Source: Schmidtea polychroa (taxonomy: Eukaryota). From it: a DNA stretch of 64,000 nucleotides. Positions 1-36,869 of this stretch are shown here, piece by piece. The translations under genes were made by a program, and so were the position numbers. The number at the start of each line of letters is the position of its first letter. Position 1 is the stretch's first letter. The notes beneath the pieces were generated by a model, which saw nothing but the letters and a program-made list of their open reading frames with translations, did no database searches and had not been told where the DNA came from. The stretch lies in NCBI GenBank assembly GCA_044892525.1, contig CM097886.1, positions 33,108,001 to 33,172,000 of the forward strand. The letters run 5' to 3'.

Positions 1-1378
1 AATATTTATTACTTTTATATTTATTTAACACAAATTTTCGGCAGTCTTTTTCAAGTGCCTATAAATTTATAGCTTGGAATGAAAATAAAATTTACTAATT
101 ATGATCAATATTCATTTTAAAAGTATAAAATGATAGTTTCTTGGTAGGAGCATTAACTAAATGTTAAACAACTTTAATAATAAAATAAGCCTTTTGCTGC
201 AAAATATATTATAATGAAAAATTTTCGATTATTAGATAATTCTTTTCAATTTCATTTTAAATTGAAGAATTTACTAATAATCAAATTTTTTTTCCATTTA
301 ATATATATTTTACAGCAAAAGACTTATCTTATCATTCAGTTGTTTTGCTATTCATTTTAATTATTTGGAGTCTGTGAGAACTTATAATTTTTGAGTAAAA
401 TTCTAGATGATTTATAGAGTCTGAGGATAGTTAAAGAAATAATGTTTTCAAATCACTGATTTCATTCTCAAAAAAATTAGGATTTTTGAAAATAAAATAT
501 TGTAGAGCTAGAAACAAGAGAATATTGGATTTGCTTTAATAAGTCAGAAAAGATACTAGCGAGAAGAGATAATAGGTTTTGCTGATTTTTTTCGAAAAGA
601 GATATTTGAGAATAAAATGATCGTAAATAGACTAAATGGTGAGTGACGGAAATTTGAAATAATAAAATAAAGAAGGAATGCTCCTTAATTTTTGGAAGCT
701 AAGTACGGCTACATCTATTTTAACGTAAAATAAAGACGCATTCAAATATTTCGAATTGAGTCACAGTGAGAAACATTCATTAAGAGAATTTATGTAAAAC
801 AAGTTCATGAAATGGTTGAAAGTCGTATCTACAAAAAGGAATGAATAGAAGAGGCGTAAATCCTTCTGCCAGTATTAAAGAAGTCGGAAATAATGGGGAA
901 TTTTATTAACAATAGACTTTAACTGCCCATTTGTTCTTAACTACTTTATACATTTTCAATTTGCGCTTCAAGGTCAAAGTGAAAAGTAACACAGCCATGG
1001 TAACACAGTAACTTAATAACCACAAGCATGAACTTAATGGTTTAAGAAGTTTTAACCAATTTTGTAAAAATATATTTCGTCATTAAATTTAATATGTTCA
1101 TTGATTTACTGAAAAGGTTAAGAAACAAATTCAATTGTGACTGCACTGACACGAGACACCTTTAAGGGAACATTCCTTATGAAAAAAAACTGCTGTCTTA
1201 TTTAAAGAACAGTACGGCATGAAGTATGGAGTATGCCATGCGACATGTGTTATATTGCAACAATGAAAGAAGTAGATAAATGAATAAGTTATAAAGTGTA
1301 CCAAACCATTAGATTGTTATATCAAAATTACAGATAAATGTGATGTTAATTCCAGAGCCAACAACAGCTATTTAACAA

Positions 1379-1623
1379 TGTGAGGAAGATTTAATTATTA
1401 GCACAATATAATATTATAATAATAAATTACATCTGAATTATTACTATTAAGAAATTAACATATACATATATTAAAGTATTATATTCGTATTATATTATGG
1501 CGTACATAATTATTATTGTTATTTAGAAATGCTTAATCGTCAATTTAATGATTTGTTTAGTCAAACCGATATTGTTATAATTTTTGAATATAATTTGAAT
1601 TCGACTTTTAGTTTTATTTAACA
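1379..1623 (+). repeat. 5' LTR (245 bp, TGT...ACA)
   Basis: Starts TGTGAGGAAG, ends ...TTTAACA immediately before TGGCGACC; repeated at 6302. Confidence 0.93.
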
Positions 1624-2786
1624 TGGCGACCCTGGCAATAGTGAATAAGATGATTCCGGATGTTTACGACGGAAGACACGAAATCGAAACTTTCATTGAA
1701 GAATGTAAGCGATATTTTCAGTTATGTGGGTTAGATCAAGATAACCAAAATATGATGATAAAATGCCTTATTTCAAGAGATATTTTACCGATTTATGAAG
1801 CCGTCGATGTCAAATTTATTAATTTTGAAGATAGACTCAGAGAAGCTTTCAAGAAGCCGTCAACACTGATAGGCGATTTTCTGAACTTATACAATTATGA
1901 GAAAGATAACGATGCAGCGCCAGTGTTTTTCGAAAAGATTGAGAAAATGGTCGACAAAGTATTGAAACACAAGTGGGATAAAAACGAATTAGTCGCTTAT
2001 TTTTTGATACATTGTGTCAAAGACAAAGAAATCCAAAAAGAGATCAAGATGCGAGATGCTTTAAAAGTCGAAGAGATCAAGGACGTAATTCGTAAAGTTG
2101 ATGCTATCAACATTGAAGTTTCTAGTATTGCAGTTATGCAAAGAAAAGAAACGTTCGCAAACGTAATAAAGAAACGACAAGGATTTGCCGATATACAAGA
2201 TCGACAACGCAATTTTTCGAATGTTCAAGAAAGACGAAATTTTGAACCAAGATTCAATTCTATTCCGCACGCTCAAAGCTTCGATTCTGGAAGGAATACT
2301 AATCAACAGTATTACCATAGAGACAACAGAGCAAGTGGAAGTCGCGTTGTTACATGTTGGAATTGTCAAGAACTAGGACATTCGAGTCGAGAATGCCCAA
2401 AAAAGAAGTGTTATGGATGTGGAAAAGAAGGACACATGATTAGAGAATGTAAAAATAACAAGATAAATTCAGAATTGAGATGCAACGCTTGTAAGGAATC
2501 TGGCCATCACCGGGGAGAATGTCCATCGATTTCATGCTCAGGATGTGGAAAACGTGGTCATTTGCGGTTTCAATGTTGGGGAACAGCAGACACACGATCA
2601 TCAGGAAGAAACCAATCTAGAAATTACGAGGATAACAGACGATATCAAGACAGATATGCCGATGGAAGAGTGGCAGCTATGGAAGACCGCGGAAACGAAG
2701 CGGAGGATTCTCAGTCTACCCGAAGTGATGGACACCCAAATGGGAGGGCTCCATCATTAGGCGAGATGATAGGAGCCATGCATTAA
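1623..2786 (+). CDS. gag: Gag polyprotein with four CCHC zinc knuckles
   Basis: 387-aa ORF with four C-x2-C-x4-H-x4-C motifs at 2355-2576 (CWNCQELGHSSREC, CYGCGKEGHMIREC, CNACKESGHHRGEC, CSGCGKRGHLRFQC). Confidence 0.93.
   Translation: MATLAIVNKMIPDVYDGRHEIETFIEECKRYFQLCGLDQDNQNMMIKCLISRDILPIYEAVDVKFINFEDRLREAFKKPSTLIGDFLNLYNYEKDNDAAPVFFEKIEKMVDKVLKHKWDKNELVAYFLIHCVKDKEIQKEIKMRDALKVEEIKDVIRKVDAINIEVSSIAVMQRKETFANVIKKRQGFADIQDRQRNFSNVQERRNFEPRFNSIPHAQSFDSGRNTNQQYYHRDNRASGSRVVTCWNCQELGHSSRECPKKKCYGCGKEGHMIRECKNNKINSELRCNACKESGHHRGECPSISCSGCGKRGHLRFQCWGTADTRSSGRNQSRNYEDNRRYQDRYADGRVAAMEDRGNEAEDSQSTRSDGHPNGRAPSLGEMIGAMH
1624..1636 (+). promoter_or_regulatory. Primer binding site, tRNA-Arg type (TGGCGACC...)
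   Basis: TGG directly after the LTR-terminal CA. TGGCGACC is complementary to a tRNA 3' end ...GGUCGCCA, as in tRNA-Arg; the tRNA assignment is from recall. Confidence 0.75.
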
Positions 2787-5700
2787 AAGGTAATAATGAT
2801 GATTGTGTGCGCCAAGATAAGTATAGTATATTTTTTAATAATAATAGTAATAGTAATTTAGACAGTATGTATAATTTTAAAAGTAGTAATAATAATTTAG
2901 ACAGTATATCTAAATCAAATTTAAAGGTAAAAAATATTAGATTTAAATCAGATGTAATTTTAGAAGATAGTATTAAAAACGTGAAAAGTAAATTAAAAAA
3001 ATATGATGTAATAAAGGAAGATTATCAGAGTAACAGTAAGATTATATATGACGTACGAGATAAAACTGATATTAATGATTGTAATTGGATGCGTGATAAA
3101 ATTAATGTAATTGAAAATAAATGTGATCAGAATTGTAAGAAGATAATAAGTATTTGTGAGGCAAAATTAATAAATAGCAGTAAAAGGTTTGTTTATGACG
3201 AAACATTGGATAAACATATAAATAATATTTCTGTTTTAAATGACGATTTAGAAATTGTATATGATAAGATGGGTGGAAGACCAAGCGTAATAGTTGGGAT
3301 TAATAGGATTTATTTCAAACATTGTCTATTGGATACGGGGGCTAGAATGAATGTAATAGATAGCTCGATCATCAAAGAAATAGGTGAGATAGATATTAAA
3401 CCTCACAATGAAGGAATTTGGTGTGCAAATGGCAGTCCATTGGAAACATTTGGCAATGTTAAATTGAAGATTCAAATCGGTAACAAAGAAGAGAATGTGA
3501 TTTTTGTTGTTGTTAAAAAGGTTTCACCGTCAATTATTGGTGGGATAGATTTACTTCGTCAATTCAACATCAAGTTAATGAAAATAAACGATAGTATAAC
3601 TGAAAATACGGAAATAGAAAATAATTTTAATGAAATTTGTAATATTGAGGCAAGATTTAGCAACTCATATAATGATGAGAAAAGATTTAGTCGAGCAATA
3701 AAATTATTTGATTTAAAAAAAGGAGATAAAATGTATCAGATAATTAATGAAAATAAAGAAGTTTTTATGGCTGATAAATGGGACATTGGAAAAACAGATT
3801 TATTATGGCACGAAATCAAAACTACTGAGGGCCCAATTTACATGAACCCTAGACGACAACCGGCTCATTTAGAAGAAAAAATTGAGGAAGCTATAAAAAA
3901 TTTGGAAGAAAATGGTATTATTAGGAAATGTGATTCGAGTTGGAATACTCCATTGGTATGTGTTTGGAAAAAAGAAAAGAATGACATCAGATTGTGTTTG
4001 GATTTTAGAAACCTAAATAAAATAACAGAAAGACAAATATTTCCAATGCCTAATATTGAACAAATGTTAGATTCACTCAATGGATCCAAGTTTTTTAGTA
4101 CTATAGATCTTGGAAGTGCATATTATCAAGTGGAGTTAACAAATAATTCACAAGAAAAAACCGCATTTTCAACAAGGAGCGGACAGTACTGTTTTAATAG
4201 AATGCCTTTTGGAATTGCTGCGGCACCGGCTACATTTCAAAAACTAATGAATATGGTTTTAGGAAAACTTCTGTGGAATACAGCTATTGTATATTTGGAT
4301 GACATATTAATATTTTCTACAAATAAAGAAGAGCATTTTAAAAGAATAAATGAAGTATTAATGAAAATTAAGGAAGCGGGATTACGAGTAAATCCAGAAA
4401 AATGTATATTTTTAACAAATGAGACAAAATTTTTAGGCCATATAATTAATAATGAAGGTGTGAAAGTGGATGAAAATAAAATTGAAGCAATTAAAAATTT
4501 TGTAAGACCTCAATGTTTGAAACAACTAAGAAGTTTTTTGGGGTTGTGTAATTATTATAGAAAATTTATAAAAAATTATTCAATGTTTTCACGAATATTA
4601 GAGTCTATATGTGGTACGACTAATGAAAAACTTATATGGTCAGAAAAATGTGAAGAAGCATTTGAAGAATTAAAAAATGCATTATCGAAAACACCAGTAT
4701 TAATATACCCTAACTTTCAGAAAGAATTTATTTTGGACACTGATGCAAGTTTTGACACAATTGGTGCGGTTTTATCACAGTTAGACGAACAGGGACATGA
4801 GCGAGTAATTGCATATGGTTCGCATTCAATGAATAAGCATGAAATAGGTTATTGTATAACAAGGAAGGAGTTATTGGCCATTTATTATTTTACTCAACAT
4901 TTTAAACATTATTTGTATGGGAAAAAATTTAAATTAAGAACGGACCATAAAGCAATAACATTCATGATGGCAACAAAAAAGCCAATCACGGCACAATTCC
5001 AAACTTGGATAAATTTTCTTAGCAGTTTGGATATGGATATTTCATTTAGAAAAGGTATGGAACATACCAATGCAGATGCATTATCCCGAGATAAGTGTGG
5101 ACGATGTACTCAATGTATGGAAGTTCATGAAAATCCTAAAACAGAAAAAATGAAAACAAGACTTTTAACAATGACAGCTGTTAAGCAAGGTGTGATTTGG
5201 CAAAAGGGTAATGTTGAGATAGAAAATCAAAAAGAATTAATCATGAAAAATGTAAAAACTAAATTTAAGATTGATGATGATGTTATCATGACAAAAGAAA
5301 ATAAAATTTGGATTCCTAAAAACAATCGCGAAAAATTTATCAAAGAAATGCATAAAATCCTATGCCACGCAGGTTGCAAAAAAGTGATTGACTACATAAA
5401 AGTAAATTATGACATGGATGAATTACAAATGATAACTACAGAAATTATTCAAAATTGTGAATTATGTCAAAAAAGAAAAACACTAACAACTAAAACAAAG
5501 GAAACTATACTAAAAACGGAAGTGTCGAAACCGTTTGAAACAATTGCTATAGATTTTTGTGGACCTTTGAAAACAAGTGTACATGGGAAAAAGTATATTT
5601 TAGGAATTATTGATATGTGCACTCGATATATTTCTCTTACAGCAGTTTCTAAGCAAGATGAGAAAACAACAGCGGACACAATAATGAAATTTTGGATTCT

Positions 5701-6334
5701 AAAATACGGTTCTCCTAGGATAATTCAAGTAGATTGTGGGAAGACATTTGAATCAGGTGTGATGAAAGAATTAGCTAAAACCCATAACATAATGCTTCAA
5801 TTTTCAAGTCCATACCATCATAGTGCAAATGGATTAATAGAACGGCAATTTCGAACAATAAGAGATTTCATGAGTACCTCAATTAAAGATAGATTAAAAA
5901 GCAATTGGGTAGAGGTATTACCAGAAATTGAATTTGCTTTGAACGCAACCGTACAAAGTACATTAGGGAAAAGTCCAGCGGAAATAGTATTTGGGTTTCG
6001 AATAACAAGAGAATGGCAAAACAAAAAGGAAGTTACTAATGACCGAATTAGAATCATTGAAGAGATACAAGAAAAGCAAAGAAATGTTAAGTACAGAAAC
6101 GCAGATAGAATTAATAGAGAATTTAAAATAGATGACAACGTTTTAGTAAAGATAGACACAAGAAAAAAAGAAGATGATAGATACAGAGGACCTTTTCGAG
6201 TGATAAAGAAACTACATGATAGAAGTTACGAACTTATGGATAAAGAAGGTAAAACAATGATTCGAAATGTAGAATGGCTAAAGCCTTTTAAACAGGGGGG
6301 ATGTGAGGAAGATTTAATTATTAGCACAATATAA
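2729..6334 (+). CDS. pol: Pol polyprotein (protease, RT, RNase H, integrase), probably expressed as a gag-pol fusion
   Basis: Motifs LLDTGA (protease); LCLDFRNLN, MPFG and YLDD (RT); LDTDAS and ELLAI (RNase H); H-x4-H/C-x2-C plus IAIDF, IQVDCG and GLIERQF (integrase); GPF motif. No stops from 2729 to 6334. Confidence 0.97.
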   Translation, partial: WTPKWEGSIIRRDDRSHALKGNNDDCVRQDKYSIFFNNNSNSNLDSMYNFKSSNNNLDSISKSNLKVKNIRFKSDVILEDSIKNVKSKLKKYDVIKEDYQSNSKIIYDVRDKTDINDCNWMRDKINVIENKCDQNCKKIISICEAKLINSSKRFVYDETLDKHINNISVLNDDLEIVYDKMGGRPSVIVGINRIYFKHCLLDTGARMNVIDSSIIKEIGEIDIKPHNEGIWCANGSPLETFGNVKLKIQIGNKEENVIFVVVKKVSPSIIGGIDLLRQFNIKLMKINDSITENTEIENNFNEICNIEARFSNSYNDEKRFSRAIKLFDLKKGDKMYQIINENKEVFMADKWDIGKTDLLWHEIKTTEGPIYMNPRRQPAHLEEKIEEAIKNLEENGIIRKCDSSWNTPLVCVWKKEKNDIRLCLDFRNLNKITERQIFPMPNIEQMLDSLNGSKFFSTIDLGSAYYQVELTNNSQEKTAFSTRSGQYCFNRMPFGIAAAPATFQKLMNMVLGKLLWNTAIVYLDDILIFSTNKEEHFKRINEVLMKIKEAGLRVNPEKCIFLTNETKFLGHIINNEGVKVDENKIEAIKNFVRPQCLKQLRSFLGLCNYYRKFIKNYSMFSRILESICGTTNEKLIWSEKCEEAFEELKNALSKTPVLIYPNFQKEFILDTDASFDTIGAVLSQLDEQGHERVIAYGSHSMNKHEIGYCITRKELLAIYYFTQHFKHYLYGKKFKLRTDHKAITFMMATKKPITAQFQTWINFLSSLDMDISFRKGMEHTNADALSRDKCGRCTQCMEVHENPKTEKMKTRLLTMTAVKQGVIWQKGNVEIENQKELIMKNVKTKFKIDDDVIMTKENKIWIPKNNREKFIKEMHKILCHAGCKKVIDYIKVNYDMDELQMITTEIIQNCELCQKRKTLTTKTKETILKTEVSKPFETIAIDFCGPLKTSVHGKKYILGIIDMCTRYISLTAVSKQDEKTTADTIMKFWILKYGSPRIIQVDCGKTFESGVMKELAKTHNIMLQFSSPYHHSANGLIERQFRTIRDFMSTSIKDRLKSNWVEVLPEIEFALNATVQSTLGKSPAEIVFGFRITREWQNKKEVTNDRIRIIEEIQEKQRNVKYRNADRINREFKIDDNVLVKIDTRKKEDDRYRGPFRVIKKLHDRSYELMDKEGKTMIRNVEWLKPFKQGGCEEDLIISTI
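2735..2777 (+). promoter_or_regulatory. -1 programmed ribosomal frameshift signal (C CCA AAT + stem-loop)
   Basis: The pol frame is -1 relative to gag and open from 2729. Heptamer CCCAAAT at 2735-2741 is in X XXY YYZ phase, then a 5-nt spacer, then hairpin GGCTCC-ATCAT/ATGAT-A-GGAGCC at 2747-2777. Confidence 0.75.
6290..6301 (+). promoter_or_regulatory. Polypurine tract
   Basis: AAACAGGGGGGA directly before the TGT of the 3' LTR. Confidence 0.85.
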
Positions 6335-6532
6335 TATTATAATAATAAATTACATCTGAATTATTACTATTAAGAAATTAACATATACATATATTAAAGT
6401 ATTATATTCGTATTATATTATGGCGTACATAATTATTATTGTTATTTAGAAATGCTTAATCGTCAATTTAATGATTTGTTTAGTCAAACCGATATTGTTA
6501 TAATTTTTGAATATAATTTGAATTCGACTTTA
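6302..6532 (+). repeat. 3' LTR, lacking its last ~13-15 nt
   Basis: Identical to the 5' LTR up to ...TCGACTTT (6531), then diverges; terminal GTTTTATTTAACA is absent. Confidence 0.9.
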
Positions 6533-9500
6533 CCTTCAAATGATTTGGAGTACAAACATCTAATTCTTCGATGCATAAATGATTTTGAATTCGCCAGAGG
6601 AAATTTTCTCCAGGTTCAGTGATCATAAATTCACTTTTTAATTGATCTTCGTAGTCATCTAGAAATTCATCACATTTATTTTTTAACCACAAAGTAACGT
6701 TCTCATCATTATAAACTCCAGACGTGTTATATTGTTCAGCATTATGAGGTTCAAATCTAACAAATTGTGGAATGTTATTTGTCCATAATTGTCCATATTT
6801 GACCATTTCTTTACATAACTACAAAGATANNNNNNNNNNNNNNNNNNNNNNNNNNNNNNNNNNNNNNNNNNNNNNNNNNNNNNNNNNNNNNNNNNNNNNN
6901 NNNNNNNNNNNNNNNNNNNNNNNNNNNNNNNNNNNNNNNNNNNNNNNNNNNNNNNNNNNNNAGGGTTCCCTCCATCCGAATTTTACTTTTTTTAAAATTT
7001 TTTTTATGAAGTATTTAATCTTTTGTACTTATCGTTCTATATTACTTATAAATGGTTTATGCTATTGTCTTTTATCATAGTTATGTAAACATATTAATAA
7101 ACTGAATCTTACTCCTGTCCAAGAATACCCTGGATATTAACTTTAACATTAACTCCACGTTCTAACGGGGTTGGTGAAGCGAAGCGAACAAGGACAGAGC
7201 CCCTAATAATAATATTAATAATAATATATTTAATAGAAATTTTTTGATTATGAATCAGTAAAGATATCGATGTTTTTTATATCTTTAGTGATTCATAGTC
7301 AAAAACTTCTAAGAAATGTCAATTGAAAAGAAATCAGAGATGAAAATTGAAAAAAAGTTTTTATAATAATAATAATACAAGTATACAATATTGCCGATTC
7401 AACTCTATTATAAGTTAAAAATGCTAAAGATAATCGGCTGCACTTGTAAACAGTTTCTGTGTATCTACTAATTTTTTAGTTCACAGAAGTGATTATGATT
7501 TTTCATACGAGATGTTTATAAGTTTGACCAAGGTAATTTTAAGTGATGCGATTTCCAGTGTACCAGGGAAACTATGCAATAGAGTTGAATCGGCAATATT
7601 ATATACTTACCTGGCGCGAAGAGAAATCTTTGCGTCTCCTGCACAGTACTGATGAGAACCAAAAGCTCGAAACTAGTCTACTATTGGGATTTGCACTGGG
7701 TATCAAAAATCTTATTCTATTCAAGTGTAAGACATCCGACAAAAAACTTTTACACCCTTACTTTATAATGTAAATGACATGCATTCAATCAGTAACAATA
7801 GTGGGGTATATTGAAAAGGATTATTTTGTATTCAAAAAGTCTATTTTAATATAACTTGCAGCAAAGACTTTTCAAATGTTTTAAAATTCCTTAAAACTTG
7901 TCATTATCACTTAATAAAATTACAAATGAATGAAGTCATTCTTGTGATTTACTCGAAAGATTTTAATTAGCTTAATCTTTGAAAATATGTACTCACATGG
8001 ATAAAAGATTTTCAATATGGTCGAAAGGAGTCTAAGACAATATCTCCCAAGATTAAAATTCTGTTGGTTGGTGGACTGGAACTAAATAAAAGTAAGTCCT
8101 GACTGTTGGTTGTTTTGTAGTGATCTGGTAAAACGAAATCTTCGGCATATAATGGGACTGGAACCGGATTATTTATTCGTTGTCAGATGCGCCGAAGAAT
8201 ACGTCTTAGATGGTAAACAGTTGGCAATTATTTTTCGTGAAGTCGACCTACAACTTGATTACCAAGAACTTTTACTTTAACTTTACTAGTCTTTTGAATC
8301 TCGACTTTTCTCACACTCAAAGGAAACAACCCAATTTTTTAGATATATTTGTTTTACTTAAACAAATCCTTCGAGTAGTAGCTTATCTTGTCCCTTTTAA
8401 TACATAACATAATATAATATAATATAACAACATAACATAGAATATTAACTGCTACAATGTACCAAAATAAATCATATAAACTTCCAAACTTTAGCTATTT
8501 ATAGTGTATTTATCAATTTACATTTCCAGGTTTAAAAATTTTATTATTGTCCGGAGGAATATTGTCTTGATACAGATTAATAGAAATCAAACATAAGTGA
8601 GTATAATAGTTGTTTCACGCTTTAGACTACTGGCAAATTAAAATTTAAAAGTACTTCTGCTCAAAAAATGCTTAACGAATGAAAAGATAAATAGAGGATC
8701 ATCCCAATTTCTTTCTTCATCGCAACCCAAACGTCTTTCATATACAGAAATTTCGGGCCAACAAGCAAATTTTCCCCCATGAGGGAAAATTTGCATGTTA
8801 ATTAACATGTTGATAAGATAGTAGCAGATAATATATAATTTTATCTAATAGATATCTAATAGATAACTCTATCAAAAATCAATTAAAAAATGTCTATGTG
8901 GAGCATATGGAGTCTATGGAGTCTATGTGGAGCAAGATAAAGTTACTAATCAAACAAATGAAAGGATTATGTAAAAATTCTCTCTAATGAGTTTATGTTT
9001 AAGAATAATGTTTGTCGTTATGATTTTCAACATTTAATTGATTTAATAAAATCTGATCAACCTTATTTTATATTTATTTTAGTTTTATATTTTGTTCTAT
9101 TATTCTTTAATTATCAAACAATTATCTTTTAATTACATCAGAGGGAAAATTTGCGTGTTGACCCGAAATTTAAATAACTTTTCTATATATACTTCCATAT
9201 TCAATTTTCGACGCTCTTCAAAGTCTTTAACATCCTTTTCTTTAGACCGTCGTTATTTTCACATTGTAAGATATATGAATTGATTACAATGTTTATGAAA
9301 GCATTTGTAGTGGTTGCTTATGAGACTTCTTCGAGATACATGCAAATGTTTAAATATGACGACTATTTCGTCTGAATTGTTTATGACTGTTGATAATCTA
9401 GTCTTTCTTTTTCTGTGAAGATGACTATTGCTTTTATGTCAATAATTCAATGACCAGGAAGTTCAACTGTGATGATAGATGGTTTTCGATTAAAATAAGT

Positions 9501-10490
9501 TTTGTTATTCTGTCAAAATTGTTATACAGTATATTTCTTTCGAATAAAGAATGATATTCAATAGATAGTGATATAATTACATATCAGACAACACAGACTT
9601 ACAACTTGAAACCATTTGCGCTCACACATAGGACAAAGGTTAAGAGATTCTTTTCGTCACCCGAATTCATTAATCACAATTTGTGATACAAACTAATAAT
9701 TAGACTTTGTCGTTCATCGGAACCTTCGAAGGCGTCAAATATGACTGAAATTTTATCTGTTTCATAAAAGTTAAATTAAATGGTTTCCTTTATGATCGAC
9801 CACAAATTTTATGAATATAATCATCTTTAATTTCAAAAGTCCGAAGTCACTATAAGCCTGATAACTTGATTTCACTTCACAAATTTAAAGATTCATTTCA
9901 TTGAATATTGAATGTTTTAGTAGAAACCCGATAACCAACTTCCGTTGCTCAATAACATTGGACTTAAAATGGACATTCGTTACTGAGCAATAGAATGCCA
10001 TCATCCTCATTATCACTTATCCGTCTTTATTGGTTCCTCTTCCATAAATTCCTTTTCATTCTTCCATTGAGTATTCTGACTCATTTGGGCTTCGCAATTA
10101 TATTTTACCACTTGAAACCTACGTAATATACGGCGACTTGTAAAATTAAAATGGTAACTGTTAACTCCACAGGTTATTATTATTATTTGTAAACCAAAAT
10201 GTTAAAGTTATTCCAATAAAATAAAAATGAAGAAAAGTGAATCTAACCGAATCAATTGCAGTCGTAAGAAAGGTATCTGATCTGGAAAACTGTATTTTTT
10301 TAGTTTTAATGTCTCCTCTTGTACTTAACCGATAACTTCCCTTTTCAATTGTCTGAGAAGGGTCCACCAGAGACACTTGATAATTCAGCTCTGAAACCAA
10401 AAGTCTACATAAGCTACATGCAAAATCAGTTTCATAATTCAAAGATTCATTTGCAAATAAAATTAATATAAAAATTGATAACATTTTCAT
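6498..10490 (-). CDS. CNPY2: Canopy/CNPY2-like ER saposin-like protein; exon 1 10490-10248, exon 2 6818-6534 (or read-through to stop at 6498)
   Basis: Signal-peptide-like N-terminus, then CSLCRLLVSEL..VDPSQTIEKGSYR..FSRSD, matching CNPY2 CGACRALVDEL..VDPKKTIQMGSFR..YARSE. The phase-0 intron TCG|GTTAGA...TTTGTAG|TTATGT joins to LCKEMVKYG..KCDEFLDDYEDQL..LC..C. The exact paralog is uncertain. Confidence 0.85.
7486..7702 (+). mobile_element. PLE-type 3' end/pLTR repeat, copy 1 (homologous to 36637-36869)
   Basis: Shares long exact blocks with the 36.7 kb copy and contains a hammerhead motif. A PLE RT relic lies ~500 bp downstream. Confidence 0.65.
7644..7683 (+). ncRNA. Minimal type I hammerhead ribozyme motif
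   Basis: AGTA-CTGATGA-GAAC CAAAA GCTC-GAAAC TA GTC^TACT. Intact core, 4-bp proximal stem I, stem II with one A-C mismatch, palindromic stem III (ACTAGT), cleavage after 7678. Confidence 0.8.
8210..8400 (+). pseudogene. Degenerate Penelope-like RT C-terminal fragment
   Basis: Translation LNLDFSHTQRKQPNFLDIFV resembles the PLE RT NLKFT.E.....NFLDI motif; heavily decayed. Confidence 0.4.
9141..10130 (-). mobile_element. Degenerate pogo/Tigger-type DDE transposase relic in CNPY intron 1
   Basis: Minus strand gives ETDKISVIFD...NSGDEKNLLTFVLCVSANGFKL (about 9602-9770), matching the pogo DDE_1 pattern DET..FD...G.EK..T.VL..SA.G.KL. Many stops; edges approximate. Confidence 0.55.
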
Positions 10491-11208
10491 TTTGAAGTAT
10501 CATTAAAATTTCTCAGATATGCCTCTTTATATATTATTTTATATAAATCAATTTATAATTGCTTAATTAAATTAAATATGTGATGATGTATGTCAGTACA
10601 AATAAAATAATTAAATAAATAAATTTTAAAAATTTAGTATAGCCAGTGTTAGAAGAAAACATTAAATAAAAATATTTATTTAAGATATTTCAAACCAATA
10701 CTATTGGTAATGTTTCATATAGCGTAATCTAGAAAAATGAATATTGTTAGTTTAAGCGGTATTATCGATACAGGTCAAATATATAATGCACTTTCTTGCA
10801 CACTCAAACATTCAGTCATCAAATTGTGAGGTCATTGATAATATAATTAGCTAAACACGAATTATTATTTTATTACTTTGACGAAGTTTACGTTGCAGAG
10901 CTTTCTCTAAAACGTGAAACCTCGCAATTATTTCTAATTTTTCGAAAATTTGTTCTAAGTATAGACTGTATAGCAGCTATTCATTTGGTCAAATAAAAGT
11001 GTTTTTACATAAAAAAAGTTATAACTTTTGTCGACAGGTAAGCCATGACTGTTATAGCCACTAAAAATGTAGATTTTAGCATTTATTTTTAAAATATTAT
11101 TATTTTTAGTACGGTTACGTATTTACAAATAACAAGTGATATATTATTAAGCAAATCTTTCACATTAAACTCCACTAAATGAGCTTTCATTTAATAGTTT
11201 ATATCATT

Positions 11209-12187
11209 TGTTGAGGATACCTAAATAACAAATTTACAAATAAATAAAATTACTTATGGGAAGATTGTCATGACAAACGGGATGATCTATGGGGACTCAG
11301 AAAAGAAAACGGAAGTATAAAGAAATGAGAAATGAGAAAGAGGAATGAAACAAAATAAATCAGATATGATAGCAAAAACAAAGTTCAGTACTAATTAATT
11401 AGTACAAAAAGGAAAAGGAATTTTGACATCGGGAAAATAGAAAAACAACAATATTCTTATCTCGACAGCTTGTTATAGATATTCGGGATCAAAACGAAAA
11501 CTGGCCGGAGCCGCAAAAGAAAATTAGAAAATATCTCGACAGCTGTCAAAGATAACTCGTTCGCAGGAAAAATTGGGAAATCATGTTGGAGAAAAAATGG
11601 GAAATTGAAGATAAACTGAAGTGCCACAAATTAACGAAATATAAAAGGAGGTAGCACGACAGAAGCAGACAAAAATATAGAGAGAACAATTTAGAAAAAA
11701 AGTTAGAAGGAACAATCGAGAAACAAATTTGGGAAGGACCAGTTAGAGGAAATTTTGGGGATAATTTAGGGATATAATATTTAATTTGGAGAATTTGAAT
11801 AAAATTGAAGTGGAGAAATTAAAGAGAAAACAGAAATAAAGAGAAGCAGCAAAAGTTTATTTAGTGATAATAGAGTAAAGTTTAGTGAGTAAATCCAAGT
11901 CAAAATCAGAAAACAACAATCAGAATACAACATTACCAATTATTACACTCCTTAGTTGTGAGAGATTTGTCGAATCAAGGTTATACACGTATGCTATTCC
12001 TCACCATAGTATTGTAATAAACACTGTATAATCGATTGTTAGCTTGTTGAGCCAATTGTATCATTGTGAAAATATTTGTGATATTTAATAAAGTTTCCAG
12101 TGTTAATTGTTATTTGTGGGTCAGTCAAAGAAACGCTTGGAGTCAGAGTAAGAATTCTAATCTTATCACCAACCCAATAACACAACA
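11209..12187 (+). mobile_element. Solo LTR, family B (979 bp)
   Basis: TGT...ACA ends, 4-bp TSD CATT/CATT, AATAAA near the 3' end; homologous to 13611, 33813 and 41327. Confidence 0.88.
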
Positions 12188-12579
12188 CATTCTTCGGATT
12201 AGTTTGTAGTTTATCCGCTACGGGATTTTAAAATTGCCTGCATCTTTTAACACAATTTGTAAATTTGTTTTAAATTAAGCTAAAGAAATAAGAAATTCTG
12301 CTAAAGCTGCAATTCGTTTCTATTATCTCAAATGAAGCTAGTGTTATGACAAAAATGGAAAAGTTATTATCAGCTTGTATCAGCAATTATGTTTGGCACA
12401 CCGTATACAATTTAGCATCAAAATATTTAATAAATGTTTAATATATATTTTTAATTTTCAAACTATATAAATTTCATTTTATCGGTATATTTTTTATAAT
12501 ACATGAATTACTAATAACAATATACATATGTTAATAATAAATTAAATAAAAACTTAATGTTATAATGAATTTTAAAGAA

Positions 12580-13610
12580 ACCCATGGTTTTAGGTTTATA
12601 TTAGTTTTTAAAATCCCGAGATCAAAAATTATGACCGGGATTGAAAACCCGAGTTGAAATAAACGAAGTCATTTATAAATTAACAGAGAAATGTTTAAAT
12701 GTATTTAAAAGTTCTAATTGTGATTTTAAAATATCAAATACATGTGTTGAGCCTTGCGAACGACATGATGAATGCATTAGAATTCCGAATTAAGGAAAGA
12801 AGAACCGATTTATCAGGTTTGTTGCAATATTTGCACAGTGGTTATGCTAATAGTTCATCTTCCTCCACTGACCTATTCCGTGCTTTGAAGAAAATCACGA
12901 TAAAGAGACTCTTATTGAATATGGTGCAACGACTATTTATATCAGAATCAGATAATGAAAATGACGAACTAGGACAGCAGCATAGCGACGAAAATGTTAG
13001 TATGGAAGTTTCGATAGTAGAAGAAACCGAAGACGACGCCGATACAATTAAGCAACAAATGCAAAGAGCAATTGATCAGCATTTGGCTGTACCTGACAAA
13101 CTGAACACATTTTCTTCCGCATCTTTAATAATAGAAAAAACTTTAAAACGTGAGCTTGCTCAATTTGAAGATGATGGAAATCGCAGTAAATGGTTGGATC
13201 TTTGTTATGACACATTAAAATCAATTCCTCCTACCAGTGTGGAATCGGAGAGGGCGTTTTCCGTATCCGGAAACTTTTGTACAAAACTGAGATCATGATT
13301 AAGCGATGAAACGATTGATAATTTATGTTTTCTACGAGCTCATTTTAATAAAATTTAAAAACATATTTTTCGAGAATTTGTCTAATAAAACTTTAATATT
13401 GTTTTGTTAATGAATTATATTTTTAAATAAATATTATCTTTTTTATACATGAATTAAAATGAAAAAAAGGTAAAATTGAAAAAAATTTTACAAAAAATAG
13501 AAAAAAAGCAGTTACTTTTAAAACCCGATTAAAAACCGATTAATCGGTTTTAGTAAAATTGAAAACCGAAAAATCGGTTTTTACTTTTACAATACTTTTT
13601 GCAATCACTA
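12580..13610 (+). mobile_element. hAT transposon 3' remnant with truncated transposase
   Basis: ORF 12699-13298 ends IPPTSVESERAFS..KLRS*LSDETIDNLCFLR (hAT dimerisation domain with a premature TGA, probably from CGA). Subterminal AACCGA/TCGGTT repeats and terminal GCAATCACTA at 13610. Confidence 0.85.
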
Positions 13611-14585
13611 TGTTGAGGATGCCTAAATAATAATTTATAAATAAAATTACCTGGGGAAGATCTTCATGACAAACGGGACGATCTATGGGAACTCAGAAAA
13701 GAAAATGGAAGTAAAAAAAATGAGAAATGAGAAAGAGGAAGGAAACAAAAGAAATTAAACAAGAAAATAAAATCCAAGGTCAGTACTAATTAATTAGTAC
13801 AAAAAGGAAAAGGAATTTCGAAATCGGGAAAATAGGAAAAACAACAATACTCATATCTCGACAGCTTGTCAGTGATAACAGAACTGCTGGGAGAAGGTGG
13901 TTAAACAAAAAAGGAAAAGGGAAAATAACTTGACAGCCGTAGAGATAAAAATGGAACAGTCGGCGAAAGCGGGAGAAAGAAAGTGGAAAGCACTTGATTA
14001 TCTTGAGTGCCACAATAGAAGCAAGCTATATAAAGAGAAACTATTAGAAACAAAAGGAGACGAAAAGCGAGAATAAAGCGAGACAAAAAGTGCCGCGAAA
14101 TTGAGACGATTTGAAAGATAATTTGAGAGATAAAATTATTAGAAAAAAATTAGACAACGTCGAACGAAACGTTATTTGAGAAACGATTTGTGGAATAGAA
14201 TTGTAAAGAAAATAATTGTGAAGAATAATTATTGGAGAAGATTTGAAGAAAAGAATTAGTTGAAAATTAAACGAATAGAAGTTACTTGAGTATTTGAATA
14301 AATTTGTTAAGAAGGTCAAAGAAAACAAACAGCTCAAAGTCCCAGTTTATAAACCAATCAGTAATTTGTGATCTTTTAATCCGGTGTTATACGCAAGTGC
14401 TATTCTCACTGAGTGTTGTAATAATATAGTTGTAATAATATAGTCACCAAGCAGAGTGTAAAGTGAAAGTTTATTTGTGATTGTCAATAAAGATTTCTGT
14501 TGTCAATTGTTATTTGTGAATCGTATAAAAACTCGTTTGGAGTCAGAGTAACATTTAAATTTATCACCAATTCAATAGCCCAACA
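13611..14585 (+). mobile_element. Solo LTR, family B
   Basis: TGTTGAGGAT...GCCCAACA, homologous to 11209-12187. Flanks ACTA/AATT do not form a TSD; abuts the hAT end. Confidence 0.8.
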
Positions 14586-15238
14586 AATTTGTAACTTGCA
14601 GACTCGCTTCTGACGAATGTCCAATTGGTTAGTTTTTTAATTGATTTCAAATAAAGGTTAAAGAATGAAAACCGTGAGGTATACGGAAACCGATAATTAT
14701 TTATGGATCTATTTTAATGTCAAAAGATGAATAGAAGTAGAGAATTGAAGAAAAAATCTCTTTGGTCGTCCTAATGTCTGCCGCGCGAAAGTAGGTACTT
14801 CACCTTGAGAGAGAGAGTTATGGTAGAATATTGTTATTTTTATATTTTATTATGCACTAAATTTCAATAACAATAATTTACGAGTTCATTTATTTTCATC
14901 ATTTTAGGATATAAATTTATGTAAAATCGAAAATAATACTTTGATTTATAATTTGAAAGAATTAAACGAAATTGTAAATGAAAACCGACCAAAATTGACG
15001 AAGTTAAAACATTTTAATGACAATAATTTATAAATAAATAATTTTTATTTTTTAACATGAATTTTCTAAATATGTTTGTTAAATGCATTTTCATGAATTG
15101 ATTTACAAATTCTGTAGTTTTTTATACTTCACCAGCATTACTGCATAGGGTTATGTTATTTGTCAATTGAACTTAGAGTTTTCTGCCTGATTATCTGTTG
15201 TAGTTGGAGTTTTTCGTGATTTGTACCTTGGTAATAAG

Positions 15239-28159: not shown

Positions 28160-28550
28160 TAATTTTTTTTTGAATTTCACCACTGATTTCTTTTCCATTG
28201 ACATTGTATTTATTAACACGTTGACGGACACTTGCGTCTATAGCCGTCAAAAAACGAAACGGTTGTTTTTAGACACAAAAACTTGCTTATTTGAGCCATT
28301 AAACCTGTCATTTACATTTTTAAATTACCTTATTAAAGGTGCTAAATTAATCAAAATTAAGTTTATTTAAGCAGAAAGAGTAATATTCTAATATTCTAAA
28401 AATTACAAAAACATGTGTCAATTTTCGAACTTCACTTGTTTCTACTGCCCGTCAGTGTGTTAATAAGCTTGAAGACTATGAATCAGTAAATATATCAAAA
28501 ACATCGATATATTTACTGATTTATAGTCAAGCTTTTCAATAAATACAATG
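28160..28550. repeat. Palindromic foldback repeat (best copy), interrupted by a piggyBac-type MITE
   Basis: 23-bp arms at 28474-28496 and 28506-28528 (1 mismatch) around AAAAACATC; outer arms continue. Partial copies near 7246, 26165, 47640, 51150, 58040 and 60265. Confidence 0.75.
28217..28459. mobile_element. piggyBac-type MITE (243 bp)
   Basis: TTAA on both sides; TIR CACGTTGACGG/CACACTGACGG. Confidence 0.75.
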
Positions 28551-31561: not shown

Positions 31562-33812
31562 TACTAAAATAAATTATAAAAATACATGATTAACAATAAA
31601 TTTCAAAATAATAATTTAATTAATTACTAATTTATTACCAATTTACTTTATAATTTTCGTAAAATTTCAGAATAATCAAAATCAAAATATAAAAATATAT
31701 TAAATTAAACCAAATATATTAATAATAATTCAATAACTATAATTTTTAGTAAACTAAGTAGATATTATTATTAAAAAATGTAATTAATGGTACAAAATAA
31801 TTGATGTCGTTTAAAGGGATAAAAAGAATCACTTAAAAATGTCTGGCAATATTTATGAATTGTTTTGCTATATAATTAGAATTTAATTGAAAAATAAGAA
31901 TTGCAAACGGATAAATAAAATTCAAGAGAATTTTATAAAGTTGATATATTCAGTCAATAATTAAAATAACGATTAAAATAAAAAAAATGAACAAATCAAG
32001 ACAGCATTTACTAAATATTCTCGGAATTAATTTCTTTAAAAATTAAAATTGAATTTAAACAAAGTTTCGTTAAGTTTAAAATTTTATTTATCAGATCAAC
32101 TGCCGACGCAAATGAATTATATAATCATTTATCTTTCTAATGCGGATATTTGAGGGGCCATGAAATCTATGAGTTCTACAAATACAGAATTAATTAATCA
32201 AACTGTGTCATTGTGCAAATATTTTGTCAAAATAATAACGGCAATGTTTTTAAAGAGACAAAAATTGAAAATGAAATAACCTTTTAAAGAGCGCAGCATA
32301 ATTGCATTTATTTCTGTTGAGTTTATTTTAAAGGATAAAATTAAATAATATTTTTACGAAACTAATTAATTTCATTAAAGAAAAAAATGTTTATAGGAAC
32401 AGAAACTTTTATATTACAAATCAGGACTTTCAAAATTTGACATTAATTGTAGTGTTTTTATCATAATAATTGGTAAGAAAACTTTTGTAAATAAATAACT
32501 ATATATTAATAAATAATTAATTATTATTATTTATTAATATTTTTATTTTTATTACTAGAAATATAAATATTAAATTTATGGTTAATATCAGATTTATTTG
32601 AAAATAAGACCATGATCTTATTTTCGAATAAAATATTTTAAATAATTGAATTTATGTAACTATCTTATAATATATATTATTAACAATTACGATTCTATAT
32701 TAATATCCCATTAGAACTACCTCTTTACTTAAAAAAAAGACATATGGAACAGGAATGGGAACAATGGCAATAAATGGTAATTTTCCTTATTTACGTACCA
32801 GTTATAAACCATTAGCTTCATGCTCACAGTAATCTCATTAATAATTAATGACTAATTGATCTAATTATAATAAAATATTTACTTTGTATGATAAATAATA
32901 ATTACCATATTTTGTATATAGTTTATCAAATTAAGCATAAAATTTATATTTTTAAGCGACTTTGTAATTTCATCTTTTATAATTTTAAATAATAAATATT
33001 AGTATTTTATTTTAAACCGTTGATAATAAAATGATTTTAAGATTGTTTTTAAGTGTTAAAAGACAATTTGAAACTGTTATGAAGAATAACATTTTTGTTT
33101 TAGTTGAAAGTTGTCAATAAAAAAGGTAAATTTATTTATTTAAATTAATTATAAAAACCTAATAGATCCGCGATAGTAATTGGATATATGATTTTATTAA
33201 CTATTTATGGATACACTTTTATTCGTGTTCTATAAAATAAGACACAACAATCTTAACGTATATTTGTATTTACAGTTTTATATCACAAATTGCACACCCG
33301 AATGTTCACACCAAGAAACAATATACGTTAAGACTACCCAACGAGCCCTACTGCGACTGTTGGATTCCTTGAACTTTAATACAATAATCTCCCTCAATAA
33401 TCCCTCAACCAGATCAAAGACATTCAGTTTATATGGTTTAACAGTAAATGATCAACTTCATATTTCTTATTCTTTGAAATCATATTACCAGACAGTTAAA
33501 TATTAAAGAAAAACGTAAAGATTAAAAATTAATTAACAAATTGTTGGAAATAAATTTTTATATTTTTTCAAATTATTACAATTTCATATTTAAATTGTGA
33601 TTTTTTGAAATATTCATCAAAATAATTTACATCATCTCAGACTCACAATTCTAATAGACGTGACAGGAAATATCAATAAAGTTTTTAAATAATTAAAGTT
33701 TTATAAAATTTATATTGCTTTGATAATACGTATTTTATCTTTTCTTTTAGACAGTCGTCGACTGACGACCTTGATTGGATCCGACAGAACGACCGATCAC
33801 TGGACTACCCTT

Positions 33813-34742
33813 TGATGGGTTATGGAGTTGGTGATAAATTTAAATGTTACTCTGACTCCAAACGTGTCTTTATACGATCCACAAATAACACTTGACAACA
33901 GAAATCTTTATTGATAATCACAAATAAACTTTCACTTTACACTGACAATAAATTCAACACTCGGCTTCGTGTCTATAAACTGCTTATTACAACACTCAGT
34001 GAGGAATAGCACTTGCGTATAACACCGGATTAAAGATCACAAATTACTGATTGGTTTATGAACGGTGACTTTGTGCTGATTGTTTTCTTTGATCTTCTTC
34101 ACAAATTTATTCCAATACTCAAGTAACTTCTTTTCTTTTAATTTGTCAACTAATTCTTTTCTTCAAATCTTCTCCAATAATTATTCTTCACAATTATTTT
34201 CTTTACAACGTTGTATAATTTTTCTCCAATAATTTTATCTCTCAAATTGTCTCTCAAATTGTCTTCCGAATTGTCTCAATTTCGAGTCACTTTTTGTCTC
34301 TAATTTTGTCTGATTTTGTCTCTGCTAGTTTCTCTTTATAAAGTTTGCTTATATTGTGACACTCAAGATATTCAAGTGTTTTTCTCCTGCCTTTTTATCT
34401 CTGATGGCTGTCAAGATAGCTTTCATTTTTCCTTTTTTGTTCAACCGCCTTCTCCCGGCAATTACGTTATCACTGGCAAGCCGTCGAGATAAGAATATTG
34501 TTGTTTTCCTTTTTTCCCGATTCCGAAATTTCTTTTCCATTTTGTACTAATTAATTAGTACTGACCTTGGATTTTATTTTCTTGTTTAATTTCTTTTGTT
34601 TCATTCCTCTTTCTCATTTCTCATTTCTTTTTACTTCCGTTTTCTTTTCTGAGTTCCCATAGATCGTCCCGTTTGTCATGACGATCTTCCCCAGGTAATT
34701 TTATTTATTTATTTATAAATTGTTATTTAGGTATCCTCAACA
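33813..34742 (-). mobile_element. Solo LTR, family B (930 bp)
   Basis: Reverse complement of the 11209/13611 family; 4-bp TSD CCTT/CCTT. Confidence 0.9.
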
Positions 34743-35280: not shown

Positions 35281-36636
35281 AATTTGATATCATTTTATTC
35301 TTTTCATAATTAATTGCCGCCATCTTTTCTAACTCTTTACCAAAATTCATAAACCGAAATTCGATACCATTAACACCATTTAATTATAAGATAACGCCAA
35401 TCAAACATTTTTTTCACGATTAATTTCGACAGTTTTCCTGTCATCATCAGGTGGGATATAATACTCATTAAATAAAGGATTTTAAACAAATTTAATTATA
35501 TATAAAAAATTTTTTATTTTATAAAAAATATTATTTTTTAAAACTTTAACATTTAAAATTTAATTTAATAATTTAAAAATTTAAAAAATTTTTTATTAAT
35601 TATTTAATTTAACACAACAATCAATACATACAATACACAAAAGCTTATTTAAAAACACTCAACACACAAGTATTTACAGCATTCTGCACATTAATTTTCG
35701 GATTCAATGATTTTATCAACAACGCCTCACAAATCACACGTTCCCAATAACTATCAAAGTTTTTTAATAAAATTTTAAAATCAGACATACCTATTTTAAT
35801 CTTACAGCCCTTATTGTGCTCACCAATATGGGTCAAAGACTTCGGTCTACAATGTTCTCGAGCTCGAATACAGAGATGACGGGAAGTCTCTCCAATGTAT
35901 GTGGCATTACACCCATTACATGTAAACTGATAAACGAGATCGGAGCACAATTCAACCGGAGTCTTTGACTTATTAATAAACATATTGCGTACTTTCCATG
36001 AAGTTGACACTATCCCTTAGTTTAAATTCCCTAACTGCTTTCTTATCTTCACTTTATAATCCTTAAAACCTTCTGAGTACGGCAATACTAACACAAATTT
36101 AGGCTCATCGTCCTTGCTCACACTATTTAATTTATTTAACTCATCAGACTCATTCACCTCAACAAAATCACACACAGATTTTAACTCATCAGACTCACAC
36201 ATCTCAACAAGATCACACCCAGATTTTCTCAAACATGGATCCTTAGGATTTTTAATAAATTTGTCAACAGTCTCTTTCACCATAATTACTAAAAAGGATT
36301 TTGAATAACCATTCTTCATCAACAGTTCAACCAACACGTCAACACTCTTTACCGAATTTTTAAAAGTAGAAGACAAAGACCATGCACGATAAATCAATCC
36401 CTTCACCATATTTCTTTTATACTTGAATTCACAAAAACTTTCGGAAAAAAAAAATTCACAAAAACTTTCGTTTTTGCATTATATGAATAGTCTACATAAA
36501 AACATTGTATTCACATGTGAAACGGAGAAAAAATCATCGCTTGCTTTCTTGGATTTGTTAATACAGAGCAAAGAGAAACACTATGAGATAGAGATTTATA
36601 GAAAACCAACTGATACTGGTCTCTATACTTTCCCGC
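35280..36636 (-). mobile_element. 5'-truncated Penelope-like element with inverted 5' segment
   Basis: Minus 36444-35645 is one frame with a single TAA: ESFCEFKYKRNMVKGLIYRAW (RT thumb)...VYQFTCNGCNATYIGETSRHL..RAREH..EALLI..P.IN (GIY-YIG). Plus 36461-36636 encodes the preceding RT part FLHYMNSLH..FLDLLI..YRKPTDTGLYTFP. Confidence 0.9.
35415..35453 (-). ncRNA. Minimal type I hammerhead ribozyme motif at the PLE 3' end
   Basis: CAC-CTGATGA-T-GACAG GAAAA CTGTC-GAAAT TA ATC^GTG. Perfect 5-bp stem II, palindromic stem III (ATTAAT), only 3 bp of stem I; ~190 nt downstream of the GIY-YIG stop on the same strand. Confidence 0.75.
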
Positions 36637-36869
36637 AGGTGATTATGATTTTTCATAAGCCATGTTTACAAGTTTACAGATTTTTTCTGTGACCAAGCTA
36701 TTTTGCAAGCGATGTGATTTCCAGTGTACCGGGGAAAGTATGCAATAGAGTTGAATCAACAATATTGTATACTTACCTGGCGCGAAGAGAAATCTTCGTG
36801 TCTCCTGCATAGTACTAATGAGAGCCAAAAGCTCGAAACTAGTCTACTATTGGGATTTGCGCTGGGTAT
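36637..36869 (+). mobile_element. PLE-type 3' end/pLTR repeat, copy 2 (runs into an N gap)
   Basis: Homologous to 7486-7702. Its start translates VIMIFHKPCLQV, reminiscent of a GIY-YIG C-terminus. Confidence 0.65.
36810..36849 (+). ncRNA. Hammerhead ribozyme motif with core G5A change
   Basis: TAGTA-CTAATGA-GAGC CAAAA GCTC-GAAAC TA GTC^TACTA. Perfect stems I and II, but CUGAUGA reads CUAAUGA. Confidence 0.75.

Follow-up and report, generated by a model that had tools for sequence, protein, structure and literature searches.

A 378-nt hammerhead repeat of Schmidtea polychroa, of which the window (the whole 64,000-nt stretch of genomic DNA analysed here) holds two copies, is best read as a non-LTR retrozyme copied by a PLE, whose tip, probably derived from a U1 transcript, is now predicted to serve as a paired structural arm and not as a working U1; we put the probability of this reading at roughly 0.6. 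It would extend non-LTR retrozymes to a planarian genome, with a snRNA fragment built into a predicted ribozyme circle, and a young, intact resident PLE provides a named candidate enzyme for the mobilisation of the retrozyme.

The 378-nt repeat and its copies in the window

Measured from cleavage site to cleavage site, the unit spans 378 nt, contains a type I hammerhead and is repeated head-to-tail, with a period of 378-379 nt (nine units in the fetched locus L022) that lies within the 150-450 bp range of retrozymes. The array units have intact hammerhead cores and stems, and several arrays are bordered by (ATT)n. Pattern and DNA searches of the source genome (G000; 781 Mb, mostly in four large contigs) gave at least 1,226 matches to an exact pattern for the hammerhead only and 1,150 to a pattern combining the U1 tip with the hammerhead core, against 0 in reversed controls for either pattern; in the DNA search, 40 of 1,504 candidates were scored and yielded 68 matches, often spaced by 378-379 nt. 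The two copies described in the initial annotation are both present in the window, yet they are merely two of more than 1,100 in the genome, and a search for further hammerhead families with the same core led back to this retrozyme family in 22 of 22 matches. Copies are non-coding, dispersed and without LTR structure, and bear the scars of retrotransposition. The 378-nt circle is predicted to fold at -127.6 kcal/mol (z -8.4 against 100 shuffles), and one contig of run X9 returns after 378 nt, which is equally compatible with an array or a circle. Taken together, these sequence features make it highly likely that the repeat is a non-LTR retrozyme. An Rfam scan of the window at gathering scores gave 0 matches, both window hammerheads being damaged, and of 28 matches in a JGI metagenome scan for the U1 tip with the hammerhead, 0 were related on inspection. 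Literature searches at the level of titles and abstracts brought up no U1-tipped retrozyme; a flatworm family might be listed in the supplements of the retrozyme papers.

Copy 1, delimited by blastn against the 378-nt unit, is a 5'-truncated retrozyme of about 0.95 unit on the plus strand (7412-7764), 85% identical to the young unit and terminating at the long (about +90) 3' end. An inverted 5' piece on the minus strand (7379-7409), a scar of the twin-priming type, lies ahead of it and is itself preceded by a short (TAA)n run; a candidate target-site duplication, TTTATAAT, was read by eye at 7360-7367 and 7762-7769. All features within the copy are on the plus strand. Folding places the 5' strand of a closing helix at 7555-7562, pairing with 7692-7699 in a predicted four-way junction, and next to it, at 7563-7581, the donor-like 5' arm of a masking hairpin, an arm almost complementary to the U1 tip. 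The U1-derived tip, assigned by its match to host U1 types, occupies 7603-7621 and overlaps the GAAA hairpin at 7614-7635, whose nine base pairs were confirmed by folding, with copy-to-copy differences that solely exchange G-C for G-U; its 5' strand opens with U1 nt 12-19, and the hairpin resembles helix H of U1. The type I hammerhead follows at 7636-7689, as had been claimed, with the core CTGATGA at 7649-7655, a minimal palindromic stem III and cleavage after C7678, 76 nt from A7603; it is damaged by a stem II mismatch (A7658) and one stem I change. Copy 2 (36637-36869, plus strand) is a 5'-truncated member of the young subfamily, 98% identical to the unit, that runs into N, its 3' end not being given. 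Its U1 tip lies at 36769-36787 and its cleavage site after 36844, and its ribozyme carries the core change G5A at 36817, presumably an inactivating one. The two copies have a 163-nt repeat in common at 92% identity.

Several other features are found in the window. A Ty3/gypsy-type LTR retrotransposon with long gag and pol frames occupies 1378-6531 and must have inserted very recently, since its 231-bp LTRs are identical. A dispersed, palindromic MITE-like repeat of the GACTATGAATCA... type occurs at 7227-7302, just upstream of copy 1, and at 28474-28530, 47671-47746 and 51140-51191. An exon of a Canopy/MSAP-family gene (PF11938) lies on the minus strand at 9980-10500, at a distance of some 2.4 kb from copy 1. 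The segments 11258-14587 and 33811-34713 contain repeat pieces related to one another, some direct and some inverted, and a weak hit to a hAT dimerisation domain at 12699-13298 is below the curated cut-off.

The U1-derived tip and its predicted fold

The 12-mer ATACTTACCTGG, reported as identical to the 5' end of U1, was confirmed at 7603-7614 and 36769-36780, and the identity proved longer than claimed: nt 1-16 of the tip agree in 16 of 16 positions with one host U1 type (L031/L033), and nt 1-19 agree in 18 of 19 with the tandem-array type (L041). Host U1 genes were searched by scoring 42 of 8,713 candidates; a pattern for canonical-tip U1 genes had 258 matches, and among the 100 listed 4 were of the L031/L033 type and 96 of the tandem-array type. 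Compared with five host U1 types, 2,000 dinucleotide shuffles gave a longest exact match of 14 nt. Beyond U1 nt 19 no homology to the U1 body or to DNA upstream of U1 was detected (p 0.09-0.98), the unit has no counterpart of stem-loops I-IV or of the Sm site, and its sole Sm-like word, about 150 nt upstream of the tip, falls within a predicted hairpin. A match that begins at nt 1 and brings no promoter DNA with it points to capture from a U1 transcript, the probable source of the tip, whose derivation from U1 as such is very probable; capture from an snRNA transcript has been proposed likewise for the heads of SINEU (PMC4494074, in part).

The host genome itself has at least six divergent U1 types, some with altered splice-site tips (AAACTTACTTGG, AAACTAACCTGG; L031, L034, L035, L040, L041 on C1, C2 and C4), and two of the types occur together in a 1,771-bp tandem array on C4. 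Variants of the U1 tip have been reported for Schmidtea mediterranea (PMC6312358, in part). Upstream of host U1, U2 and U4 genes (L033, L035, L040, L164, L208, L210) an ATGCAAAWT-like motif at -67 to -71 is a candidate snRNA promoter element; the motif search did not converge when unconstrained and did so when anchored by position, with a leave-one-out total of 47-53 for the ATGCAAA-like word at -67 to -71 versus 14-35 at other anchors. Host U5 genes have ATGTAA at -76. Tandem-array U2 genes (L164-L175; C2 at 17.2 Mb, C45) have an unusual 5' region, and their branch-point pairing stretch reads AAGTGTAAGAA, unlike the canonical branch-point pairing sequence.

The 12-mer is at the same time the 3' arm of a longer hairpin, overlooked in the initial annotation, whose 5' arm is donor-like. 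This masking hairpin, the closing helix, the GAAA hairpin and hammerhead stem I are predicted to meet in a four-way junction (z -7.4 for copy 2), and in the predicted circle 11 of 12 tip nucleotides have an unpaired probability of 0.15 or less. When ten older full-length copies were folded, the tip was mostly paired in nine, the tenth having no tip. Among subfamilies, the helices of the circle gave no clean two-sided compensatory change, variable sites being one-sided or breaking, and changes in the partner arm are not compensated in the tip.

Of 80 copies, 53 preserve the whole 12-mer and 40 the whole 16-mer; per copy, the tip (0.93-0.94) is conserved to no greater degree than its flanks (0.91-0.97), as expected of copies in decay. 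Sites diagnostic of subfamilies are absent from the 16 positions of the tip and the 48 of the hammerhead, and they make up 3 of 19 positions in the partner arm and 27 of 167 in the upstream part, so the tip sits in a conserved core without standing out there.

A related sequence was found in a second organism (organism B; contigs of run X20, their kind being guessed), in which the alignment runs from L022:504, corresponding to U1 nt 3, to about position 605, with the main changes at 529, 530, 532, 534, 561 and 562; upstream of the tip, where the comparison spans 30 visible letters, the sequence is different (13 contigs, agreement 0.66). The difference table lists no variant at tip nt 3-16, and by hand arithmetic the probability of no change in 14 nt, given 5-6 changes in 102 nt, is about 0.4; in one loose-end consensus, built from 5 contigs, two tip positions are changed. 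That an alignment should extend from U1 nt 3 through the ribozyme fits selection on the tip and does not prove it. In the short loose-end consensus a potential closing-helix word is kept and the long masking arm is missing, and therefore the tip may be more exposed there. Hairpins of the organism B type gave 14 matches in the source genome, of which 0 were retrozymes.

As modelled by folding, the role of the tip is most likely structural. The masking arm varies at three subfamily sites and the U1 arm at none of 16, which, together with a homology to organism B that sets in at nt 3, hints at a constraint on the U1 sequence itself, and a purely structural role would leave such a constraint unexplained.

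Copy ends, insertion scars and the resident PLE

Copy anatomy was studied in 90 loci, those at the head of the list of hammerhead-pattern matches, which all lie within the first 45 Mb of contig C1 and were chosen for an intact hammerhead core, not for the tip; removal of 3 overlapping loci and 5 duplicates left 101 copies in 82 loci. Downstream of the cleavage site, 52 of the 101 copies end at +43 to +58 and 29 at +74 to +96. Their 5' ends are scattered: one starts within 3 nt of U1 +1 and 79 reach further upstream, and in a second set of copies 0 of 22 begin at U1 +1. ATT/TA repeats are present in the 3' flank of 34 copies and in the 5' flank of 8 (n = 101), and an inverted 5' piece occurs at 23 of the 82 loci. 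Read-through into a coding element was seen in none of the 101 copies, each of which ends or enters the next unit. Truncation at the 5' end, inversion and microsatellite targets are likewise scars of PLEs (PMC8557442, in part), and for an Anolis PLE nicking at ATT and an internal start of reverse transcription have been described (PMC11167929, in part). The insertion scars thus point to PLE mobilisation of the retrozyme as the likely route, to judge from sequence.

A PLE is at hand in the window. On the minus strand at 35378-36449 lies the 3' part of a young element, comprising the end of an RT-linker-GIY-YIG frame (Pfam GIY-YIG, E 9e-5), its own minimal hammerhead near 35417-35452 and a short tail ending in GTTATCTTA; it is 98% identical to the intact copy L287. 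An inverted 5' piece of the same insertion (36469-36630, plus strand) abuts the truncated 5' end of copy 2 and stops at PLE position 2406, the main piece beginning at 2405, as in a twin-primed insertion. Adjoining the PLE 3' end is an intronless proteasome-subunit-like frame (PF00227; 34844-35383, minus strand), possibly a processed pseudogene. The resident PLE family is young, with 150 of 150 scored hits at 97-100% identity, and has an intact 873-aa RT-GIY-YIG frame, a hammerhead of its own near the frame start and two tail lengths, the short one ending in GTTATCTTA. Retrozyme 3' ends read GTTTATCTTA in 15 copies and one-base variants of it, GTTTATTTTA and GTTTATATTA, in 19 copies each; these variants are the commonest ends, and therefore the likeness to the PLE tail is partial. 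In the window, L005 and L156, a PLE lies directly or almost directly against a retrozyme. The unit and the intact PLE have no common sequence beyond 15-nt chance matches, and the PLE is without a U1 tip. We infer that the resident PLE family is a candidate mobiliser of the retrozyme.

The life cycle could then run as follows. Read-through transcripts of the arrays would self-cleave into 378-nt monomers, possibly as dimers, as suggested by the minimal, palindromic stem III, and the monomers would be ligated into circles. The PLE endonuclease would nick ATT-rich DNA, and the PLE reverse transcriptase would start internally, about +50 or +90 after the cleavage site, and proceed back across the ribozyme junction, giving rise to truncated, inverted or tandem copies. 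The tip may have been acquired by a template switch onto U1 RNA, or by insertion of the PLE type into a member of the numerous U1 genes, whose promoter would then have driven transcription, and either event would explain a match starting at nt 1. After capture, U1 nt 12-19 would have become paired in the GAAA hairpin, and in this species an inverted arm would then have covered U1 nt 1-12.

Alternative readings and known systems

That the likeness to U1 is coincidental or convergent, a hairpin arm merely happening to complement a donor-like sequence, appears improbable. By definition the donor consensus is complementary to 11 of the 16 nt, and the partner arm looks like a donor (older copies read CAGGTAAAGTAT), but the match starts at nt 1 and runs 5-8 nt past the donor-specified part, and 0 of 2,000 shuffles reach 15 nt. 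The exact beginning at U1 nt 1, like that of the organism B homology at nt 3, would also agree with U1 +1 being the start of the element itself, driven by an internal snRNA-type promoter, so that the ribozyme would cut off a capped 76-nt leader and the monomer would follow; the newt satellite 2 promoter offers a precedent (cited in PMC2220036, seen in part). The element has a TGCAA word at -65, against -66 to -68 in host genes. Its best score on the host motif is -3.9 in place, although 3 of 11 host genes are likewise at 0.2 or less, and the two best-matching U1 types score poorly themselves (-0.8, -2.9), so the promoter test is weak for these types, which lack the motif too. However, homology to the upstream regions of 10 host snRNA genes was not found, and a single-ribozyme transcript from +1 should have left copies beginning there, as 1 of 101 does, 79 extending upstream. 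We regard such a start as rather unlikely.

The initial annotation had offered a ribozyme-terminated 76-nt U1-mimic RNA, a claim that received no support from the copy starts (1 of 101 and 0 of 22 at U1 +1) and from a fragment devoid of an Sm site. A released RNA, either the 76-nt fragment or a circle with an exposed tip, could also be a U1 decoy, acting in trans on 5' splice sites to which it would pair. By itself the 76-nt fragment is predicted to keep nt 1-10 free (unpaired probability 0.59-0.99) ahead of a helix, an order also found in U1, its duplex with a consensus donor is predicted at -14.0 kcal/mol, and the tip is constant across subfamilies and in the organism B table. The fragment, however, also lacks stem-loops I and II, its 5' end would require a start or cut at +1, which has no support, and the tip is masked in the predicted circle, is conserved per copy no better than its flanks and differs at two positions in the 5-contig consensus of organism B, where the unchanged 14 nt have the probability of about 0.4 given above; a decoy thus seems very unlikely. 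The proposition that a parasitic ribozyme RNA retains its U1 tip under selection through active use, as the start of a capped 76-nt decoy or as a switchable arm, is on balance unlikely; in the latter version the tip, masked in the circle, may be exposed on cleavage and engage 5' splice sites or U1 proteins. The initial annotation had further proposed that the ribozyme of a PLE pseudo-LTR borders on an antisense intron of 39 nt. The minus strand does have a perfect donor, CAG|GTAAGTAT, and a Drosophila PLE provides a parallel in an intron that ends at hammerhead helix I, although on the sense strand (PMC4209133, in part). The AG of this intron, however, is a private G>C change at 7572, shared by none of the 68 other copies that span this position, and was therefore gained in copy 1 and not, as had been stated, lost in copy 2; moreover, a PLE frame follows none of the 101 sampled copies, and there is no homology to the resident PLE, which has no U1 tip. 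The private AG and the missing PLE frame largely refute this candidate, which we consider extremely improbable, although the link to PLE biology stands and a rare autonomous partner may exist among copies beyond the sample. Among sequencing runs, none on record as RNA was listed as containing the repeat; contigs of four runs (their RNA status is a guess) contain no joint at the minus-strand donor, which counts neither way, and the NDUFA7 gene to whose introns the 39-nt intron had been compared in size was not found by a crude motif search.

The reading of a PLE-copied retrozyme with a structural U1 arm has consequences of its own. The open proposal that PLEs mobilise retrozymes gains sequence-level support from the two fixed 3' ends, the partly shared tail motif and the abutting insertions. 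If the tip is only structural, it records how such elements acquire host RNA; if it were a start site or decoy, a selfish circular RNA would be tied to splicing control, and with an active tip U1-mimic RNA would come from over a thousand loci. Planarian stem cells have been reported to express special U1 variants (PMC6312358, in part). Whichever reading holds, antisense intronic copies of the retrozyme carry a perfect cryptic donor.

Among known systems, the repeat resembles metazoan non-LTR retrozymes in its tandem unit of 150-450 bp, type I hammerhead and low GC, in occurring as monomers to multimers without LTR, PBS or PPT, and in a strongly folded predicted circle and co-occurrence with PLEs (PMC7229834; bioRxiv 10.64898/2026.07.22.740005; both in part). 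The U1 5' tip is found here only, the passages searched in these two sources making no mention of snRNA-derived sequence, and, unlike in those retrozymes, a derivation from the pseudo-LTR of the one PLE family tested is not visible and the circle is a predicted one. With the pseudo-LTRs of EN+ PLEs the repeat has in common a type I hammerhead whose palindromic stem III is short, a choice between two 3' ends separated by some 40 nt, insertion at ATT-rich targets, and 5' truncation with inversion (PMC4209133, PMC11167929, PMC8557442; all in part), whereas its copies carry no RT-GIY-YIG frame (101 sampled), form pure tandem arrays and have a canonical 4-bp stem II and 6-bp stem I in place of a minimal hammerhead. 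Newt satellite 2 is likewise a hammerhead tandem repeat (PMC7229834, in part) with a link to snRNA genes (PMC2220036, in part); there the link is a promoter, whereas here it is a transcribed tip, a promoter motif of the host type not having been found. SINEU of crocodilians, like the repeat described here, is a non-autonomous retroelement with U1-derived sequence, for which addition by template switch was proposed and along with which the snRNA promoter was not carried (PMC4494074, in part). In SINEU, however, the snRNA part forms the 5' head and mobilisation by Tx1 LINEs has been proposed (PMC4494074, in part), whereas the retrozyme keeps 16-19 nt of U1 inside a circularly permuted ribozyme unit, where the tip is not the 5' head of the copies.
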